The notes under the pieces were generated by a model. The model did no database searches and was not told the DNA's origin. It saw only the letters and a list, made by a program, of their open reading frames with translations. A DNA stretch of 64,000 nucleotides from a virus: UHGV virus genome UHGV-1366603; one strand, written 5' to 3'. The translations under genes and the position numbers were made by a program. Below, piece by piece: positions 5,613 through 45,753 of this stretch. The stretch's first letter is position 1. Each line of letters begins with the position of its first letter.

Positions 5613-6916
5613 CAGTTAGTACCTGCCTCTGTAACAAGACCATTGACGCTGTCAAGTAATCCTGCTTTCTTGAGAATATATTGATAGTCTGCTTGGTAGA
5701 CATACCAGGTAAGCTTGCGCCGTACGGAATCGATATGTGGATAGCCGTAATAGTTAAATAAAGGCAATAACTGTGGCGCGATAGGAACAAGTTGGCTGCT
5801 GGCCATCGGGATAAAATTCCCCGAAGCGACTGAGCCGGGCTGCGGGAGCATATCTGGGTTAAACATCCCAACAGTTTTATTGAACATCTCCATGTAAAGC
5901 GGATCGTTAAACCGTGCCCCGATTGCTTGCCAGTTGATGTTAATCGTCACGTCGTCATTTAACTGCGGCTTTGAGTTATCGACGTTCGCCATTTGACCCG
6001 CGTTATCGTTCATCGGCCAGGCTACACAAATTGTCCAGAAACGGGTAATGTTCCCTAACGCATCGTAACGTAGACCGTAGATACGTGACTGGTAATCAAT
6101 GCGTCGTTGAATGGAGTTGCGCATCTTCGGACGGAACTTACCCATCTTAATACCCGCCATATACTCCAACCACACACCCATCATTCTCATTAACGGGTCA
6201 CCGTAGGGGTTGTTTAGGGACATTGACACAGAGAACGCGTTGTTGATTTCGTGCGTAGAATCAACCATACCCCACTGTTCGCGCATCAAGCCTTCACTGG
6301 CCATCCAGTTATCGACGGACTGATCGGGTGTTCCGCTTAAACTGATCAGCTGCGTACTGAGTATTGGTATGAACGCTTGTAGATTATCGAATCTTACCTG
6401 CGGCATAAACGGAGTACCTAAGCGGTTTCTTCGTATCCCCGTTTTGCTCTCAACAGGTGAGTCCGAAAACCCTAATTCGAAATCAGGGTCGAGAGCAGCA
6501 AGTATCGAATAATCTAAAGAGTCCTTCGGCTGCAATGCCATGTTTGACATTTTACGCGACTTGGCAATGTTGTCGTAGCACAGGTTGAAATCGGGCCGGG
6601 TAATAAATGTTAGACCACCGTATTCTCGGTTGATTGGCGTGGGGTTAGACGCCATCATATGGTTGAACCCCATGTAGGGGTTGGTCAAACGCTGCGCAGC
6701 AAGACCCAAACCTACAGTAAGGCGGATACGATCGTTCCATGCCGTAAGTTCGGTGTTTGCATCGTAAGGTGTTGCCGGATTGTTGTTGCTGAGTCGGTTA
6801 TTAAAATACCCGGCAACAGAAGGCACCGCGTCCGCGTTATTCGGATTGTGGAGAGAATCGTCGTAATCAGTATTCGGGTCATACCCCGGATCGTTCTTAT
6901 CTGTCTCGTCACTCAT
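5612..6916 (-). CDS. hypothetical protein (434 aa)
   Basis: Minus-strand ORF, GGAG RBS in palindrome AACTCCGGAGTT upstream of start at 6916. Confidence 0.75.
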   Translation of the reverse strand: MSDETDKNDPGYDPNTDYDDSLHNPNNADAVPSVAGYFNNRLSNNNPATPYDANTELTAWNDRIRLTVGLGLAAQRLTNPYMGFNHMMASNPTPINREYGGLTFITRPDFNLCYDNIAKSRKMSNMALQPKDSLDYSILAALDPDFELGFSDSPVESKTGIRRNRLGTPFMPQVRFDNLQAFIPILSTQLISLSGTPDQSVDNWMASEGLMREQWGMVDSTHEINNAFSVSMSLNNPYGDPLMRMMGVWLEYMAGIKMGKFRPKMRNSIQRRIDYQSRIYGLRYDALGNITRFWTICVAWPMNDNAGQMANVDNSKPQLNDDVTININWQAIGARFNDPLYMEMFNKTVGMFNPDMLPQPGSVASGNFIPMASSQLVPIAPQLLPLFNYYGYPHIDSVRRKLTWYVYQADYQYILKKAGLLDSVNGLVTEAGTN

Positions 6917-39779: not shown

Positions 39780-40433
39780 ATGGAACCACTACGTTTAATG
39801 ACCAGAACGCTACTGATTCCTATCTGGGAATTGAAGCTTGCCCCATTGCCTGCCTCTAATGGGGAGGTCATTGATTTTATTAAAGACGAAGAATTCGTGT
39901 TGACGGCTTTCCAGGAGACGCTGCATCGTTATTATAATGCAGTGCCTTTATCTGGCGGATTAGATTGCCCTGGTGTAGAAGGGAGTACGTCTGCGTTAAT
40001 TGCAGAGTATTTAGAACAGAAAGGAATCGGGGTTGGGAAAGGTCGGGTTTATGTGGACGTCGATAAACTGAAGAGTTATCAGATTGAGCTGACGTTTCAG
40101 ATAAGAAAATTACTTACTCGCTACGGTCTTTTCTCGATTAACTGTAAGGTTGATGACGTACGGATGTTAGACCACGGTTTTACCACCGCCCTCAAAACTT
40201 GTCGCGGTAAAAGATTCGTACAATTTGCGTGGTGGGTACCAGTATTGCGTGGTGAGAGAAAAACGGTGGAGGGGTTGTACGGCTGGGCGCTATGGAGCGA
40301 AGTTCCAGTAAATAAACTCGATGCGGTTATTCCAAAGCACCGAAACGTTCCGCTTAGCAGTTTATTTACTTCCGGCGAGAACACTACGTGGGCTGAATTC
40401 GTTAATAACGTTATGTCAATTGGGGAACAATGA
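39780..40433 (+). CDS. hypothetical protein (217 aa)
   Basis: AAGGAGAC RBS; first gene of accessory block. Confidence 0.8.
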   Translation: MEPLRLMTRTLLIPIWELKLAPLPASNGEVIDFIKDEEFVLTAFQETLHRYYNAVPLSGGLDCPGVEGSTSALIAEYLEQKGIGVGKGRVYVDVDKLKSYQIELTFQIRKLLTRYGLFSINCKVDDVRMLDHGFTTALKTCRGKRFVQFAWWVPVLRGERKTVEGLYGWALWSEVPVNKLDAVIPKHRNVPLSSLFTSGENTTWAEFVNNVMSIGEQ

Positions 40434-40909
40434 TGCAGCAATTAGATATTACTGAAGACAAAATCTCCGCTAAATTTCCACAATTACGCGAATACATTAA
40501 GGACTTAAACTCGATACGCGAAACACCTGTTCGTATTACGTTAGCGATAGAAGACGATATTACGCACGGTATTGCGATTTGGGAACCGGGCAATCTTATC
40601 TATCTGGTGGTAGCAGAAGGTTCTCGTCGTTTCGGCGTGGGTTCGTTCTTATTGCAGTACGTTCAGTTGAATTCCGATCGTCAAATGGTGACGTGTCGTG
40701 TCCACCCTTCGAACATTGACGGCCTGTGTTTCTTTTCGAAAAAAGGCTACCAGATTGACCGTTGGTATATCGCCAGCGACTCTCGTCGGTATTTTCGTAT
40801 GACGAACGGTAACGTTGTTTCGTCATACGCCCCGCCGGAAGAAGGATATTTGGTGGATTTTATCGAAAACACGCCCATCTTTCTCTCTGTTGCGGATAAA
40901 ATTTATTAA
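40430..40909 (+). CDS. GNAT-family acetyltransferase (159 aa)
   Basis: GNAT motif A-like LVVAEGSRRFGVGSFLL; ATGA coupling to upstream gene. Confidence 0.6.
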   Translation: MMQQLDITEDKISAKFPQLREYIKDLNSIRETPVRITLAIEDDITHGIAIWEPGNLIYLVVAEGSRRFGVGSFLLQYVQLNSDRQMVTCRVHPSNIDGLCFFSKKGYQIDRWYIASDSRRYFRMTNGNVVSSYAPPEEGYLVDFIENTPIFLSVADKIY

Positions 40910-40925: not shown

Positions 40926-41402
40926 ATGATACGTGTCGAATATGAGACGCGGTGCTTAGAAGACAATCGAGCAAAAGCATTACGTTGTGTTGAAATCGTC
41001 CCCGAACACGAACTGGATATTCAAGCTGGTAAGGTTCGGGGCGTTCCGGTTAAGATCGTACAACATAGCCATTGTTCGCAATATAAAGAGAAAGCTGTCC
41101 CAGTAGTACGTTCCAGTAAACGAGAAGACTTTTCAGAACTCCGTAAGTGTTTTCAACGACACTACCGCCGGAGTAAATGGAAAGTGTTGGTATTAATGTT
41201 AGTCGACGATTTCATTAAAGACCTGGTTTGGGAAGAAGTGCTTAAAGAGCGTGGTTTTCAACCCAAACCGTTCTCGTATCACTGGGAACGTTTCAAAAAG
41301 AAATACCACGAGTCATTGCGTTGGTCTCCGAACACCCGGAATATGATGCCGCGTTTAGAGTCAATGTCTTGGCTTCGTGTTTATCTCGATGAGGTAAACT
41401 GA
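40926..41402 (+). CDS. hypothetical protein (158 aa)
   Basis: ORF; stop overlaps next start. Confidence 0.7.
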   Translation: MIRVEYETRCLEDNRAKALRCVEIVPEHELDIQAGKVRGVPVKIVQHSHCSQYKEKAVPVVRSSKREDFSELRKCFQRHYRRSKWKVLVLMLVDDFIKDLVWEEVLKERGFQPKPFSYHWERFKKKYHESLRWSPNTRNMMPRLESMSWLRVYLDEVN

Positions 41403-41791
41403 TGAAACGTTTTATTACTCCATTTCTAATGTTACTTTCGTTTTCTGTATTAGCGGATTTTAAACCTTACGATATCAGTCGTTACGAACCTGCTGTTCCT
41501 GGCGATAAACCGGTTGTGTTTAAAGCAGACGACCAACCCGTCACTGCGGTTCAAAACGATGAGTTTGCAGTGGTGAATTACGGCAAAACGGACTTATGCC
41601 CTGCGGGTGGATTTTATCTGGTGAACATCAAACGTCGAACTTATCAGTTTGTTGATCCGGGTAGCTGCTCTGCAATGGTTAAGGTGACGTTAGAAACCGT
41701 ACCTTACACGAATAAAAACATTAATATACAACGTTTAACCTTTTATGCGGGTGATGAAATCACAGCACGTTATCCGTTATACGGGTATTAG
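41402..41791 (+). CDS. secreted/periplasmic protein (129 aa) with N-terminal signal peptide
   Basis: MKRFITPFLMLLSFSVLA signal-like N-terminus; two Cys pairs. Confidence 0.7.
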   Translation: MKRFITPFLMLLSFSVLADFKPYDISRYEPAVPGDKPVVFKADDQPVTAVQNDEFAVVNYGKTDLCPAGGFYLVNIKRRTYQFVDPGSCSAMVKVTLETVPYTNKNINIQRLTFYAGDEITARYPLYGY

Positions 41792-41814
41792 TGATTAGCC
41801 CCCACGGAGTTCGT

Positions 41815-42453
41815 ATGTCTTTTGTAATTGATTTCGACGTTGGCCACAGACAGAACTTACTTAATCTCGTTAGTTATTGTAACAGTGACAGTGTACGGAA
41901 AAAGCTTTCGGCTGAAAAGGTAGACGTTACGCTCGTCGGTGCCCCAACACCGGAAGGACGCTATAAGGTAAAGTTAACGAACCGTAACGACATAAACGAT
42001 GCGGTACTGATTACCTACACAAAGCTTCAACTGAACGACTTCCTTGAGATTCCTGCCAAGTATCTGGATTGGTTTGATTTCGAAAACGGTCAACCTAAGA
42101 ACTACGATACGTGGGCAGCTTCCGCTAAAGTCGCTGTAGAGAAAATGTGCCAAGACCGAGGTATGGTGATATCGCGCGCTTGGGACACCGGTTCACAGTG
42201 TCACATTGAGTTTGACGAGTCTATCGAACGCTATGTGGTTGTTTACGAGTGCGACTCTTTTATTTATAGTGCGAGAAACCGATTCATCTTACCTCTACAC
42301 TTAGGGCAGGTGATTAACGACACGACATTAGACGGTCTTGATTACAATAACGAACTGAACAAGAAACCATTGGCGGATTTGGACGGTGAGTTAGAAGTGT
42401 GGATGGGTCAGGCGTTGGTTGAGACAGTCGTCTTAAGCGGCCTGGAAATGTAG
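41815..42453 (+). CDS. hypothetical protein (212 aa; track gives GTG start 41791)
   Basis: ATG preceded by GGAG RBS. Confidence 0.7.
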   Translation: MSFVIDFDVGHRQNLLNLVSYCNSDSVRKKLSAEKVDVTLVGAPTPEGRYKVKLTNRNDINDAVLITYTKLQLNDFLEIPAKYLDWFDFENGQPKNYDTWAASAKVAVEKMCQDRGMVISRAWDTGSQCHIEFDESIERYVVVYECDSFIYSARNRFILPLHLGQVINDTTLDGLDYNNELNKKPLADLDGELEVWMGQALVETVVLSGLEM

Positions 42454-42465
42454 TAGTAACGGTGG

Positions 42466-42506
42466 GTAGAGAGAGCTTTCGGGCTCTCTCTACTTTTCTT
42501 TTTTTT
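42466..42506 (+). terminator. intrinsic terminator
   Basis: GTAGAGAGAGC-TTTCGG-GCTCTCTCTAC followed by T-run. Confidence 0.9.
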
Positions 42507-42535
42507 CATTAACGACGGTCTTTATGGAGGTGACC

Positions 42536-43090
42536 ATGAAAGAATATAAAATCGCGATCATCGGGTCTCGAGAAACACCGGAAGACGTTATGCAGGAAAT
42601 GTTGGAAACGTTACGGGAAGGGTTTCGAATCTTACGAAAGAAAGGCTACACGATTACCACCCGTTCTGGAGGATGTTATAAAGGCCCAGACCAACTTCAG
42701 TTCATGTTAGCACGCACCGAGGACGTTAAGAGCGTTTGTTACCTGCCGGATGAAAAGAAAATGTGGCTAGGGAAAATACACCCTAAAGTAGAGTTCCGTT
42801 ATATCCCACAAGACGTGCAGTACCGAGCAGTTGTTGCTTCACTCCACCCAAACCCAGATAAGCTCTCACCGATTGCCTGGGCGTTACACGGTCGTAATCT
42901 GAATATCATCTCAGGTGACCGTTTAGACGAACCGGTAGACGCAGTGTATTATTTCAGCGACCACGACAAACACGGAAACGCAAAGGGTGGTACTGCGATG
43001 GGTGTAAAATACGCGAAGTCAGTCGACGTTCCTTGTTACTACCATACCGCCGATCGAGATAAGTGGTTGGAAAGTCTTCGTTTATTATGA
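42536..43090 (+). CDS. SLOG/DprA-like Rossmann-fold protein (184 aa)
   Basis: KIAIIGSRE…TITTRSGGCYKGPDQ resembles DprA/Smf and SLOG-family glycine-rich motifs; GGAGGTG RBS. Confidence 0.5.
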   Translation: MKEYKIAIIGSRETPEDVMQEMLETLREGFRILRKKGYTITTRSGGCYKGPDQLQFMLARTEDVKSVCYLPDEKKMWLGKIHPKVEFRYIPQDVQYRAVVASLHPNPDKLSPIAWALHGRNLNIISGDRLDEPVDAVYYFSDHDKHGNAKGGTAMGVKYAKSVDVPCYYHTADRDKWLESLRLL

Positions 43091-43240
43091 ACTTGACTTT
43101 AACCGCTTTACAAAGGGAATCCCGATAAGCGTCGTAGTTGAGTTCAGCGATTCGCCGTGCGATGGGAACAGAAGTTACTGCGTATCCGACAGCAGGGTGA
43201 ACTGGGTAAAAGTAAGATCAAAGCAAACGAGTAAATTATC

Positions 43241-44374
43241 ATGTCAACGTTAGATAGCGACTTAGAAGTGCTTTGTGACGATTACGACCGACTCGTAGCG
43301 TTAGAATCCATTGGAGTAAAAGATAATTATCCGGCTATCGTTGCTATCCGTAAACGTTGGCTTTTGGATGATGTGGTTGTTGCGTCAGAGTCTTCGGCCA
43401 TGATGCACCGCGCACAGTTTTTGTCAGACACGGAACCTGATAAAGGGATAGGCAAAGCGGCTGCGCGACTCACCGGACGTGCTGTTCGTGGCGTCAGTCG
43501 GGTAGCAGGCCGTGCTGCCAGTGCAGGTGCAAAAGCATCAGCGAACTTTGCAGGTAAACATTCCAAACAGCTTGCTTTACGTTTTGTGGACTTTGCTGAG
43601 GCTGCGGGTAAAGAAGTCATTAAGGAATTAAAAGAAGCGACGTCTAAAGCGACGACCTTAGAGCGCAAACTGCAAAAGTTAAATGCACGTCTAAGTTTAA
43701 TCGGTGACAAAGACACCTTAAAACCGGTTGACTGCGACACGGGAAGCTGGACGACCAAAGTTTGTTTAGAAGACAAACCTAATGTAAAAGCGTGTATTGA
43801 GTTCAGTAAGAACCTGAACGCAATGGATGCGATGGTCAACGATTATACCGTTAAAACGCGTACTATTCTCGGTAAGAGTAAGAAAGTTACTGAGAGTGGT
43901 TTGGAGAGAGTAGGTCGGTCAACGAACTGGGCGATTAAACGTAGTGCAGGGTTGTTCGGTATTATCGATCCGTTTAAAACGGTGAAAGCGTATCCGTGGC
44001 CAGGTAACGTGGTGGTCGTTGAACACGACAACGGTAAGATTGAGTGGGCGATTGCCCGTGATGGTGATTTTGGCCACACAATCAAATCTCTGAACTTACA
44101 CGAAATCGGTTCAGCTCTCGAAGCCGTTGAAAAAATTATCCGTGCTTTACGTCAGCGTGGTACGAAGCGTCGTAGTGTTGGTTATACCGGTATTTACGAT
44201 GAAATTCAGCGAATGAAAAAAGAATTGAAATCGTTAGACGGTCGTGAATTACGTGACGCTACCGTTCGGTATAAAAACGCACTGCGTTTAGAAGATGCGT
44301 TTACTACCTCGTTAGTGCGTGTTGCGGAAGGCTTACTGGAATGGTGCAGGTTGTCGCTGATTGAGGTTAAATAA
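43241..44374 (+). CDS. hypothetical protein (377 aa), Ala/Arg-rich N-terminal region
   Basis: ORF; TAATG coupling to downstream GNAT. Confidence 0.75.
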   Translation: MSTLDSDLEVLCDDYDRLVALESIGVKDNYPAIVAIRKRWLLDDVVVASESSAMMHRAQFLSDTEPDKGIGKAAARLTGRAVRGVSRVAGRAASAGAKASANFAGKHSKQLALRFVDFAEAAGKEVIKELKEATSKATTLERKLQKLNARLSLIGDKDTLKPVDCDTGSWTTKVCLEDKPNVKACIEFSKNLNAMDAMVNDYTVKTRTILGKSKKVTESGLERVGRSTNWAIKRSAGLFGIIDPFKTVKAYPWPGNVVVVEHDNGKIEWAIARDGDFGHTIKSLNLHEIGSALEAVEKIIRALRQRGTKRRSVGYTGIYDEIQRMKKELKSLDGRELRDATVRYKNALRLEDAFTTSLVRVAEGLLEWCRLSLIEVK

Positions 44375-44841
44375 TGCGTATCACTATTATTCTCAAACCC
44401 GACAGTAAATACGGAAAGTTATACGGCGACCAGGTACTCAAACTGCACAACATGTTGTTCGCAGAAGAGAAAGTGCGTATTAGTCAGTTAACTGGACGTG
44501 ACACGTTCAACCCCATCGAACGTTTAGAAGAGATTTGGCCTCAAGATTATCTCTGTGCTTGTGCGGTGGGTGACAACGAACAGCTTCTGGGATTTATGAC
44601 GTTCTCATTGGGTTCTTGCTCAAAAGACACGTTTGTTTACATCGGGAATTACTATGTGATTCCTGAAGCACGCTCTCAAGGGGTAGGGCGTGCGCTTATG
44701 GACAAAGTCCGTGAATACGGAAAGTCTAAAGGTTGTGGTTGGATGAGTCTGGATGTGTTAGACAACAACGTTAAAGCTATCTCCTTGTATGAGAAAATGG
44801 GATTCCGTACCGAATGCAGGGAAATGATAAAGGAAATCTAA
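44374..44841 (+). CDS. GNAT-family N-acetyltransferase (155 aa)
   Basis: Classic GNAT motifs YVIPEARSQGVGRALMDKV and AISLYEKMGF. Confidence 0.8.
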   Translation: MRITIILKPDSKYGKLYGDQVLKLHNMLFAEEKVRISQLTGRDTFNPIERLEEIWPQDYLCACAVGDNEQLLGFMTFSLGSCSKDTFVYIGNYYVIPEARSQGVGRALMDKVREYGKSKGCGWMSLDVLDNNVKAISLYEKMGFRTECREMIKEI

Positions 44842-44842
44842 A

Positions 44843-45475
44843 ATGGCTGCAAGATTCGTACCGTTTCATGACGGGTCTAGATATACTTTTGGTGTAGAGC
44901 GTTACGCTGTGGGTTTTCGTCCTGGTTGGAGAGTGGTACGAATCGATAAAGCGTGTTGGTGTTTACCGACCGGCATTTTTGATTACTTTACGCCTGAAGC
45001 TTTAACGCGGTTTGTTTCTCTGGGTTCTCCCACGCAACGTGCTGCGTGGGAAAAGAATATTCGTTGCCGTTATTTGGGTAAAACACGAAACGCGACGGTA
45101 CGCGGTGTTTATCACGTAGGAAGCCGTTGGTTACACGTTGAGCCAACACATCTCCGTTGTGCCGTCACGCCCTTTAACGGTGAATATCGCGGTCAGGTGT
45201 ACACTGGGTTACATTTTGCGTTCCCGGATAACCCTGACCTTAATTATTTTCTGGCTACCCCGAAAGACGTTACATTAGCCACGTTCTATAAATACCTTTT
45301 GTTCTATCCTGCGTACGTCGTTGCAGAATACGAACACAAAGCATTTCCTCTACCTTACGGTAGAGACAGGAGATTAGCAGGATGTTCTATCGAGAACTTC
45401 AGCAATACACCGACGCTCTCCGAAAAGCGACCATTGATGCTCACAACAACCTCAGAGATGTCGTTAGCGTTATAG
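44843..45475 (+). CDS. hypothetical protein (210 aa)
   Basis: ORF beginning 2 nt after GNAT stop; 3' end overlaps next ORF by 94 nt. Confidence 0.6.
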   Translation: MAARFVPFHDGSRYTFGVERYAVGFRPGWRVVRIDKACWCLPTGIFDYFTPEALTRFVSLGSPTQRAAWEKNIRCRYLGKTRNATVRGVYHVGSRWLHVEPTHLRCAVTPFNGEYRGQVYTGLHFAFPDNPDLNYFLATPKDVTLATFYKYLLFYPAYVVAEYEHKAFPLPYGRDRRLAGCSIENFSNTPTLSEKRPLMLTTTSEMSLAL

Positions 45476-45753
45476 AACAGTGTTCGGATGTATTGTATGC
45501 GGAAACGATTGAAACGCCAACCCGCGACGGTGTGAAATCGCTCCAGCTACACGTTTGTAGTAAACACGGCAGTCTGTCGTTAAACTTCCGTGTAGGTTTA
45601 GATTATTACATGGTTCGTAAGAGCTATTTAAGTTGTGACGGTGACCTCTATCCGGTTGTCTGGAACAACGATTATTCTAAGTTTGTTTATCCACTTGAAG
45701 AACACCGACGCACGGTTTATGAATTTGTGAAAGCTGTTCTCGAGGGGTTCTAA
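45382..45753 (+). CDS. hypothetical protein (123 aa)
   Basis: ORF with AGGAG RBS. Confidence 0.6.
   Translation: MFYRELQQYTDALRKATIDAHNNLRDVVSVIEQCSDVLYAETIETPTRDGVKSLQLHVCSKHGSLSLNFRVGLDYYMVRKSYLSCDGDLYPVVWNNDYSKFVYPLEEHRRTVYEFVKAVLEGF

Follow-up and report, generated by a model that had tools for sequence, protein, structure and literature searches.

The gene considered here occupies positions 42536–43090 of the plus strand in a 64,000-nucleotide stretch of the virus genome UHGV-1366603 (hereafter the window, meaning the whole stretch of DNA that was analyzed) and encodes a single-domain DprA-like SLOG protein of 184 aa belonging to PHROG 768. The listing of open reading frames gives a slightly longer frame (42524–43090, plus strand). 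A Shine-Dalgarno sequence GGAGGT, read from the sequence at 42526–42531 (plus strand), is separated by a 4-nt spacer from the ATG at 42536, and the first methionine of the homologues is equivalent to this same ATG. Because the position of GGAGGT and the homologue starts agree, we consider 42536–43090 to be the best gene model. A gene with these limits had been proposed in an earlier note on this DNA, and it proved to be real: besides the signals just described, its product matches the phrog_768 profile ("DprA-like DNA recombination-mediator protein") over its full length (E=2.4e-42; residues 1–175 on profile positions 1–173 of 191).

Upstream of the gene, an intrinsic-terminator-like hairpin followed by a T-run (42464–42505, plus strand) closes the preceding gene cluster. 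The hairpin has a 14-bp stem (42464–42495) with a 4-nt loop and a dG of -23.1 kcal/mol (z=-5.4); all of 200 shuffled sequences were less stable. The SPN3US orthologue is preceded at the same position by a different hairpin and T-run, which suggests a conserved transcript boundary. Between the SLOG gene and the next gene, which begins at 43241, no terminator was detected. The description of the gene as its own unit after a terminator at 42466 is therefore only half shown: the upstream terminator is real, while a downstream one was not found. Scans for sigma-70 promoters around the SLOG gene were uninformative; jumbo phages of the phiKZ/SPN3US type are transcribed by their own RNA polymerases. 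It should be mentioned that the segment TTAACGACGGTC (window 42496–42535, 3' of the terminator T-run) is similar to TTACGAATCGTC (SPN3US extract 5944–5994), both representing a short element before the Shine-Dalgarno sequence. From its sequence, this element could be a promoter element for the phage RNA polymerase.

A megablast search with 3 kb around the gene (41500–44500) against 50,697 deposited phage records gave no match. Since no close relative was found in this way, the assignment of the phage relied on protein searches. The SLOG protein is 57–61% identical to proteins of the phages Asesino, phiEaH2 and SPN3US (tblastn), whose group has genomes of roughly 240 kb, and the best deposited phage protein is only about 60% identical. 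Proteins with 96% and 75% identity were found in public metagenome assemblies; the former, from Logan assemblies (P0001), comprises 351 member sequences and occurs on two contigs, the longest of 33.8 kb. Judged by protein similarity, the window is that of an SPN3US/Asesino-like jumbo phage, which appears to represent an undeposited lineage related to SPN3US (Seoulvirus) and the Erwinia Asesino jumbo-phage group.

The order of the neighboring genes matches ACQ60_gp181 to gp168 of SPN3US. Upstream of the SLOG gene lie genes for phrog_8722, 8034, a GNAT acetyltransferase, 9187, 5248 and 10571, and downstream those for an internal head protein, a second GNAT and 9255. In SPN3US the corresponding gene is likewise flanked by the genes for phrog_10571 and the internal head protein, with a terminator hairpin upstream in both phages. 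On sequence and gene order, the SLOG gene is identified as the syntenic orthologue of SPN3US_0092 (ACQ60_gp174), labeled in RefSeq "DprA-like DNA recombination-mediator protein". Two differences from the SPN3US group were revealed. SPN3US has a small gene, SPN3US_0093 (90 aa), after the orthologue, which tblastn over the whole window did not detect; the SLOG gene and the internal head protein gene are separated here by a 150-nt gap (43091–43240) containing no open reading frame of at least 40 aa. In addition, most homologues of the SPN3US group carry an insertion of roughly 15 residues after helix 2, which is missing from the SLOG protein.

Several other features of the neighborhood were noted. 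The two GNAT acetyltransferase genes (40430–40909 and 44374–44841; phrog_7861 and phrog_3810) are paralogues, each product weakly matching the profile of the other, and they bracket the cluster as gp178 and gp171 do in SPN3US. The 129-aa phrog_5248 protein (41402–41791) starts with MKRFITPFLMLLSFSVLA, which resembles a cleavable signal peptide, and may be an exported phage protein. Two open reading frames of the same strand but in different frames, 44843–45475 and 45382–45753, overlap by 94 nt, while the corresponding pair annotated in SPN3US (gp170/gp169) overlaps by 55 nt; the true start of the second frame may lie further downstream.

To return to the SLOG protein, a model predicted with AlphaFold2 from a 14-sequence alignment was confident (pLDDT 92.4, pTM 0.89) and has the form of a three-layer alpha/beta Rossmannoid with a parallel sheet; several SLOG families match it in structure. 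In a Foldseek search against the PDB, H. pylori DprA (HpDprA) was the top match (E 2e-5), followed by YpsA, Moco carrier protein (MCP) and TM1055. The nearest solved structures were DprA and ShosA, with a narrow lead over MCP, TM1055 and YpsA, and LOG scored lower. On the predicted fold alone, DprA would be favored over the other SLOG families only marginally. Among predicted viral structures (BFVD), PHROG 768 and Phi92_gp047-like proteins matched the model with TM 0.70–0.76.

Sequence profiles were more selective. A profile built from 117 family sequences (alignment A2, drawn from 4391 cluster representatives) and compared with all PDB sequences gave significant matches solely to DprA (5e-5 to 7e-4): 3maj at 5e-5, HpDprA at 3e-4 and SpDprA at 7e-4, the best LOG match having an E of 0.31. 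It should be mentioned that DprA was reached by this 117-sequence profile only, searches of PDB sequences with the single sequence and with the 14-sequence profile returning noise. With hhalign, the whole Rossmann domain of E. coli Smf could be aligned, including the R-N pair and the GGT/SGS loop (E 0.0023).

Comparison with curated profiles was less decisive. The DprA/Smf family (PF02481; gathering cut-off 29.6 bits) gave no match to the query at E<=10; two of the 14 close homologues matched it (best E 0.007), and members of the family fused to other domains, described below, scored 19–23 bits. Among precomputed Pfam labels of 120 close family members, PF02481 occurred 13 times and LDcluster4 twice. 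YAcAr (DUF2493, PF10686; SLOG proteins related to YspA and cpYpsA) matched the query weakly and over the C-terminal GGT region only (residues 146–176; 15.2 bits, E 0.019), below its gathering cut-off of 28.2 bits; weak matches to it were found in four of the 14 homologues, and viral YAcAr proteins were second-tier structural matches (TM 0.42–0.52). NCBIfam and PADLOC gave no matches, PADLOC none even at E<=10. Weak Pfam matches to TyrRS_C and Ig_PIFI were dismissed as chance.

Thus, membership in the SLOG superfamily is secure, and a position nearest to the DprA clade is supported by profile, fold and motifs. Since no Pfam threshold (DprA, LOG or YAcAr) was reached, we call the protein DprA-like rather than a DprA. 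It is a new member, about 60% identical to its deposited relatives, of a known and widely annotated family that is experimentally uncharacterized. The earlier note had described it as a SLOG/DprA-like Rossmann protein, and this description stands: evidence from profile, fold and motifs agrees, no search placed the protein in an unrelated family, and the predicted structure is a SLOG Rossmann fold.

In the A2 alignment ten residues are invariant (G10, R12, G45, G50, D52, R120, N121, G151, G152 and T153), and S11, T14, P15, S44, H104, P105, L117, H118, G127, P133 and A160 are at least 90% conserved. Most of them fall into a few segments, all encoded on the plus strand. The glycine-rich loop after strand 1 (G10-S11-R12-E13-T14-P15; 42563–42580) corresponds to DprA motif 1 'G-S/T/A-R' and aligns on G50-T51-R52 of HpDprA. 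It overlaps the peptide KIAIIGSRE, which had been noticed previously and occupies residues 5–13 (42548–42574). The second glycine-rich loop, after strand 2 (S44-G45-G46-C-Y-K-G50-P-D52; 42665–42691), with SGGAxGAD in the family and SGxAxGID in DprA, aligns to DprA 'SGxAxGxD'. It lies within TTRSGGCYKGPDQ, the other peptide pointed out before, at residues 41–53 (42656–42694), and the two peptides are 27 residues apart, close to the earlier figure of about 25. The sequence L117-H118-G119-R120-N121 (42884–42898) in helix 112–126 corresponds to DprA motif 2 'F/L/Y-x-x-R-N/D' and aligns to the R-N of E. coli Smf; L117 is 90% and H118 94% conserved. An invariant loop before the last helix (G151-G152-T153; 42986–42994) occupies the position of DprA SGS and LOG PGGxGTxxE, although the LOG glutamate is absent. 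Finally, the pair H104-P105 (42845–42850), conserved at 98% and 94%, has no counterpart in published DprA motifs.

The meaning of these motifs can be judged from HpDprA, in which one thymine of the bound ssDNA is inserted into a pocket formed by Arg52, Phe140, Arg143, Asn144 and Gly164 (PMC3950713). R143 and N144 hold the inserted base, motif 2 spans F140–N144, and the substitution R52E causes an about 315-fold loss in ssDNA affinity (PMC3950713). Wang et al. proposed "G-S/T/A-R" and "F/L/Y-x-x-R-N/D" as signatures of ssDNA-binding DprA and contrasted them with the LOG signature "PGGxGTxxE" (PMC3950713). Alignment shows that both ssDNA-binding signatures are invariant or nearly so in the family, and that the four loops expected to form the pocket (GSR, SGGxxGxD, LHxRN and GGT) are conserved. 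The catalytic motif of LOG (PF03641), in contrast, is replaced by KGGTAMG, without the Glu, and the LOG profile gave no Pfam match. The only invariant acidic residue, D52, is also present in the non-catalytic DprA. On sequence grounds H104 and H118 look enzyme-like.

The family also differs from bacterial DprA in several respects. DprA/Smf proteins are usually multi-domain, with an N-terminal SAM and/or a C-terminal winged-helix/DML1 domain, whereas the SLOG protein is one compact domain of 184 aa; this is a weak argument against DprA, because some bona fide DprAs have one or two domains (PMC3950713). T14-P15, H104-P105 and H118 are peculiar to the PHROG 768 family, and the model predicts one additional strand and helix, inserted between strand 3 and the helix bearing the R-N pair. 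The isoelectric point did not discriminate: the median pI is 8.3 in the family and 6.6 for the Rossmann domain of E. coli Smf. We conclude that the protein is not a canonical transformation DprA.

What the RefSeq and PHROG annotations mean, taken literally, is a dimeric mediator that loads host RecA or a phage UvsX-like recombinase onto SSB-coated ssDNA in place of T4 UvsY. We regard this as improbable. DprA is indeed the nearest family by fold and profile, but the PF02481 threshold is not reached, SAM and C-terminal winged-helix domains are lacking, and the family also occurs in N4-like phages and in T4-like phages, which possess the UvsY mediator. Because of its presence in phages that have UvsY, plain substitution of the mediator is not the whole story. 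A replacement of UvsY in jumbo phages was nevertheless suggested by Iyer et al. (2021), who regarded the protein of jumbo phages as an ssDNA binder of the DprA/Smf type (PMC7824862). A further argument against it comes from the related ORF83, a phage protein annotated as "Smf/DprA" and reported to counter Salmonella Avs3: it was described to have lost the dimerization and RecA-contact residues of DprA, and its AF3 complex with RecA was poor (ipTM 0.18) (EVADES preprint 10.1101/2025.06.06.658234).

The structural proximity to ShosA raised the question of a decoy that copies this DprA-like antitoxin and neutralizes the host ShosTA defense. Such a role is very improbable. ShosA (PDB 8zva) has 308 aa with extra parts and acts via RecA binding, whereas the SLOG protein has 184 aa; in score, ShosA has no advantage over other SLOG families; neither a defense-system profile (ShosA/ThsA type, including PADLOC at E<=10) nor an evident partner gene (ShosT PRTase, or SIR2/TIR) was found; and the family is far more widespread than expected for a counter to one system.

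An exhaustive profile search revealed the 4391 cluster representatives mentioned above (E<=1e-3), mostly stand-alone proteins of 160–200 aa, and tblastn detected family members in 721 deposited phage records. These phages are of the jumbo, T4-like (Straboviridae), rV5/phi92-like, PAK_P1-like and N4-like kinds. The family was also found on 28 plasmids, 12 of them conjugative. In the conjugative plasmid pNL1 the gene is located among those for an SOS-response-associated (SRAP) peptidase, a thermonuclease and SSB, a conjugative Aromatoleum plasmid has RdgC and DUF1071 genes in its vicinity, and in other phages it stands amid small accessory genes. In Pseudomonas phage PAK_P1 it is located about 1 kb downstream of a Prs-like and NamPT-like pair, plus a phosphatase; the adjacent genes of the pair are annotated 'ribose-phosphate pyrophosphokinase' and 'nicotinamide phosphoribosyl transferase', and we take them to resemble the phage NAD-reconstitution pathway NARP1.

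Among the 150 top representatives, 25 exceed 230 aa, and 19 of these were scanned against Pfam. NADAR was present in six (P0044, P0054, P0059, P0070, P0164 and P0166), being N-terminal in P0054 and C-terminal in the other five, with P0164 carrying both Macro and NADAR. DUF4326 was found in two (P0066 and P0108), additional YAcAr or LDcluster4 SLOG domains in three, and an SF1 helicase in one (P0145). Precomputed labels add further DUF4326 and NADAR fusions, P0263 and P0295 belonging to the former, and in two of the plasmid genes the domain is fused to Macro. The fusion members retain intact pocket motifs. The same partners (Macro, NADAR, DUF4326 and SF1 helicase), as well as enrichment in jumbo phages, are described for the viral YpsA-like SLOG clade, to which YAcAr belongs (Iyer et al., 2022; PMC9503650).

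The domains to which the family is fused have acquired a new meaning with recent work on DNA ADP-ribosylation. NADAR strips ADP-ribose from guanine in ssDNA (PMC11543638), and the phage NADAR and Macro proteins AdfN and AdfM reverse the damage done by DarT, also in a jumbo phage that forms a nucleus (PMC13309987). Since NADAR and DarG-type Macro domains act on ADP-ribosylated ssDNA, such fusions are no longer specific to soluble ligands. In our view, a DprA-type ssDNA-gripping domain joined to hydrolases or helicases would most simply be an ssDNA-targeting module.

It can be hypothesized that the pocket of the stand-alone, single-domain SLOG protein accommodates a single nucleotide, which would most likely be part of ssDNA (base and phosphate), as in HpDprA. 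The protein would then act as an accessory ssDNA-binding factor on intermediates of phage replication, recombination or repair and could help the phage to tolerate or repair ssDNA damage, for example by nucleases or by ADP-ribosylation of bases. In other elements the chemistry would fall to hydrolases (NADAR, Macro) or helicases on the same polypeptide as the domain; the stand-alone protein would work in trans. That the stand-alone protein grips ssDNA as an accessory factor in phage DNA repair or counter-defense is the reading that we tentatively prefer, at somewhat less than even chances. Besides the motifs and profile matches, it is favored by the fusions to an SF1 helicase, NADAR and Macro, by the plasmid neighbors SSB, SRAP peptidase, RdgC and DUF1071, by the family's median pI, for what it is worth, and by the independent proposal of ssDNA binding in jumbo phages (PMC7824862). 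Several points speak against it. The extra DprA domains are absent, and the tight binding of ssDNA by DprA involves a dimer with two pockets (PMC3950713). The near-invariant H104 and H118 lie outside published DprA motifs. The fusions to NADAR, Macro, DUF4326 and YAcAr fit a soluble ADP-ribose pathway equally well (PMC9503650), and if the phage forms a nucleus, the protein would meet phage DNA only after import into it.

The soluble pathway just mentioned leads to the main alternative. For viral SLOG domains, Iyer et al. (2022) predicted a role in sensing or breaking down soluble derivatives of ADP-ribose (PMC9503650). Applied to this family, the pocket would bind, sequester or cleave (at the N-glycosidic bond) a free NAD- or ADP-ribose-derived or AMP-like nucleotide and so blunt host immune signaling or NAD-centered defense alongside NADAR, Macro, DUF4326 and Nudix enzymes. 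This is possible but doubtful. The conserved histidines and NAD-themed partners agree with it, while the missing LOG motif and an invariant acid (D52) shared with non-catalytic DprA do not; the sequence profiles find DprA and not LOG or ThsA, and no PADLOC or NCBIfam match was obtained. Moreover, local profile searches of the window for genes of NADAR, Macro, DUF4326 or a second SLOG protein found none. We rank the binding of ssDNA above that of a soluble nucleotide because of the DprA-only profile matches, the intact DprA motifs and the reading of the fused domain as an ssDNA-targeting module.

The case of ORF83 bears on the same question, as AMP binding was predicted for it and its amoeba-virus homologues are fused to DUF4326 (10.1101/2025.06.06.658234). 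Compared by description only, it is alike in being a small stand-alone phage SLOG protein with a pocket R-N pair, a GGT-type threonine and DUF4326-fused relatives. At the same time, its N90-to-T112 spacing is 22 residues versus 29–32 in the PHROG 768 family, and its best PDB matches are LOG proteins, not DprA. A Marseillevirus SLOG protein was a second-tier structural match to our model (TM 0.44). The different spacing and this TM value argue for placing ORF83, known to us by description, in a sister SLOG family rather than in PHROG 768, which also weakens the case for a soluble ligand. ORF83 is absent from the Silas et al. preprint with its supplements and from an anti-defense survey (PMC11724313). 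Its identification with gp83 of Erwinia phage PhiEaH1 was considered and proved wrong, that gp83 being a virion protein. The second anti-Avs3 protein is a DNA ligase, ORF55 (10.1101/2025.06.06.658234), and we speculate that this hints at DNA repair, rather than nucleotide hydrolysis, as a possible basis of the anti-Avs3 phenotype.

The family and both functional readings, ssDNA and soluble nucleotide, are already in the literature (PMC7824862; PMC9503650), and they are the two themes, recombination mediation and nucleotide-signal processing, to which the earlier note had linked phage SLOG domains. The "DNA recombination-mediator" label of the family, however, rests only on remote homology, and its function bears on the annotation of very many phage genomes. 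As it stands the interest is modest; it would be higher if the family proved to counter host defense by a new activity toward ADP-ribosylated nucleotides. In such a scheme, which we consider rather unlikely though worth stating, PHROG 768 would not mediate recombination but would be a broad viral and plasmid counter-defense module whose DprA-type pocket, putatively augmented by the two conserved histidines, would recognize, or even excise or hydrolyze, ADP-ribosylated nucleotides. The targets would be ADP-ribosylated ssDNA bases (DarT-type damage) or soluble ADP-ribose-derived immune signals, and the stand-alone protein would serve as a trans partner of NADAR/Macro hydrolases or as a new anti-Avs, anti-DarT or anti-Thoeris factor. 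If true, the DprA branch of SLOG would gain a new biochemical activity, and thousands of phage annotations reading 'DprA-like' would have to be relabeled. Re-read after the work on ssDNA de-ADP-ribosylation, the NADAR and Macro fusions suggest that the family may join the phage toolkit against DNA-targeting or NAD-centered immunity.

It should also be mentioned that the fusion protein P0164, encoded on a metagenome contig (1128–3653), combines a DprA-like SLOG domain, NADAR and Macro in one chain of 841 aa. With this domain composition, it would be a promising candidate for an ssDNA de-ADP-ribosylase of dual specificity (guanine and thymine) that carries its own ssDNA-binding module.
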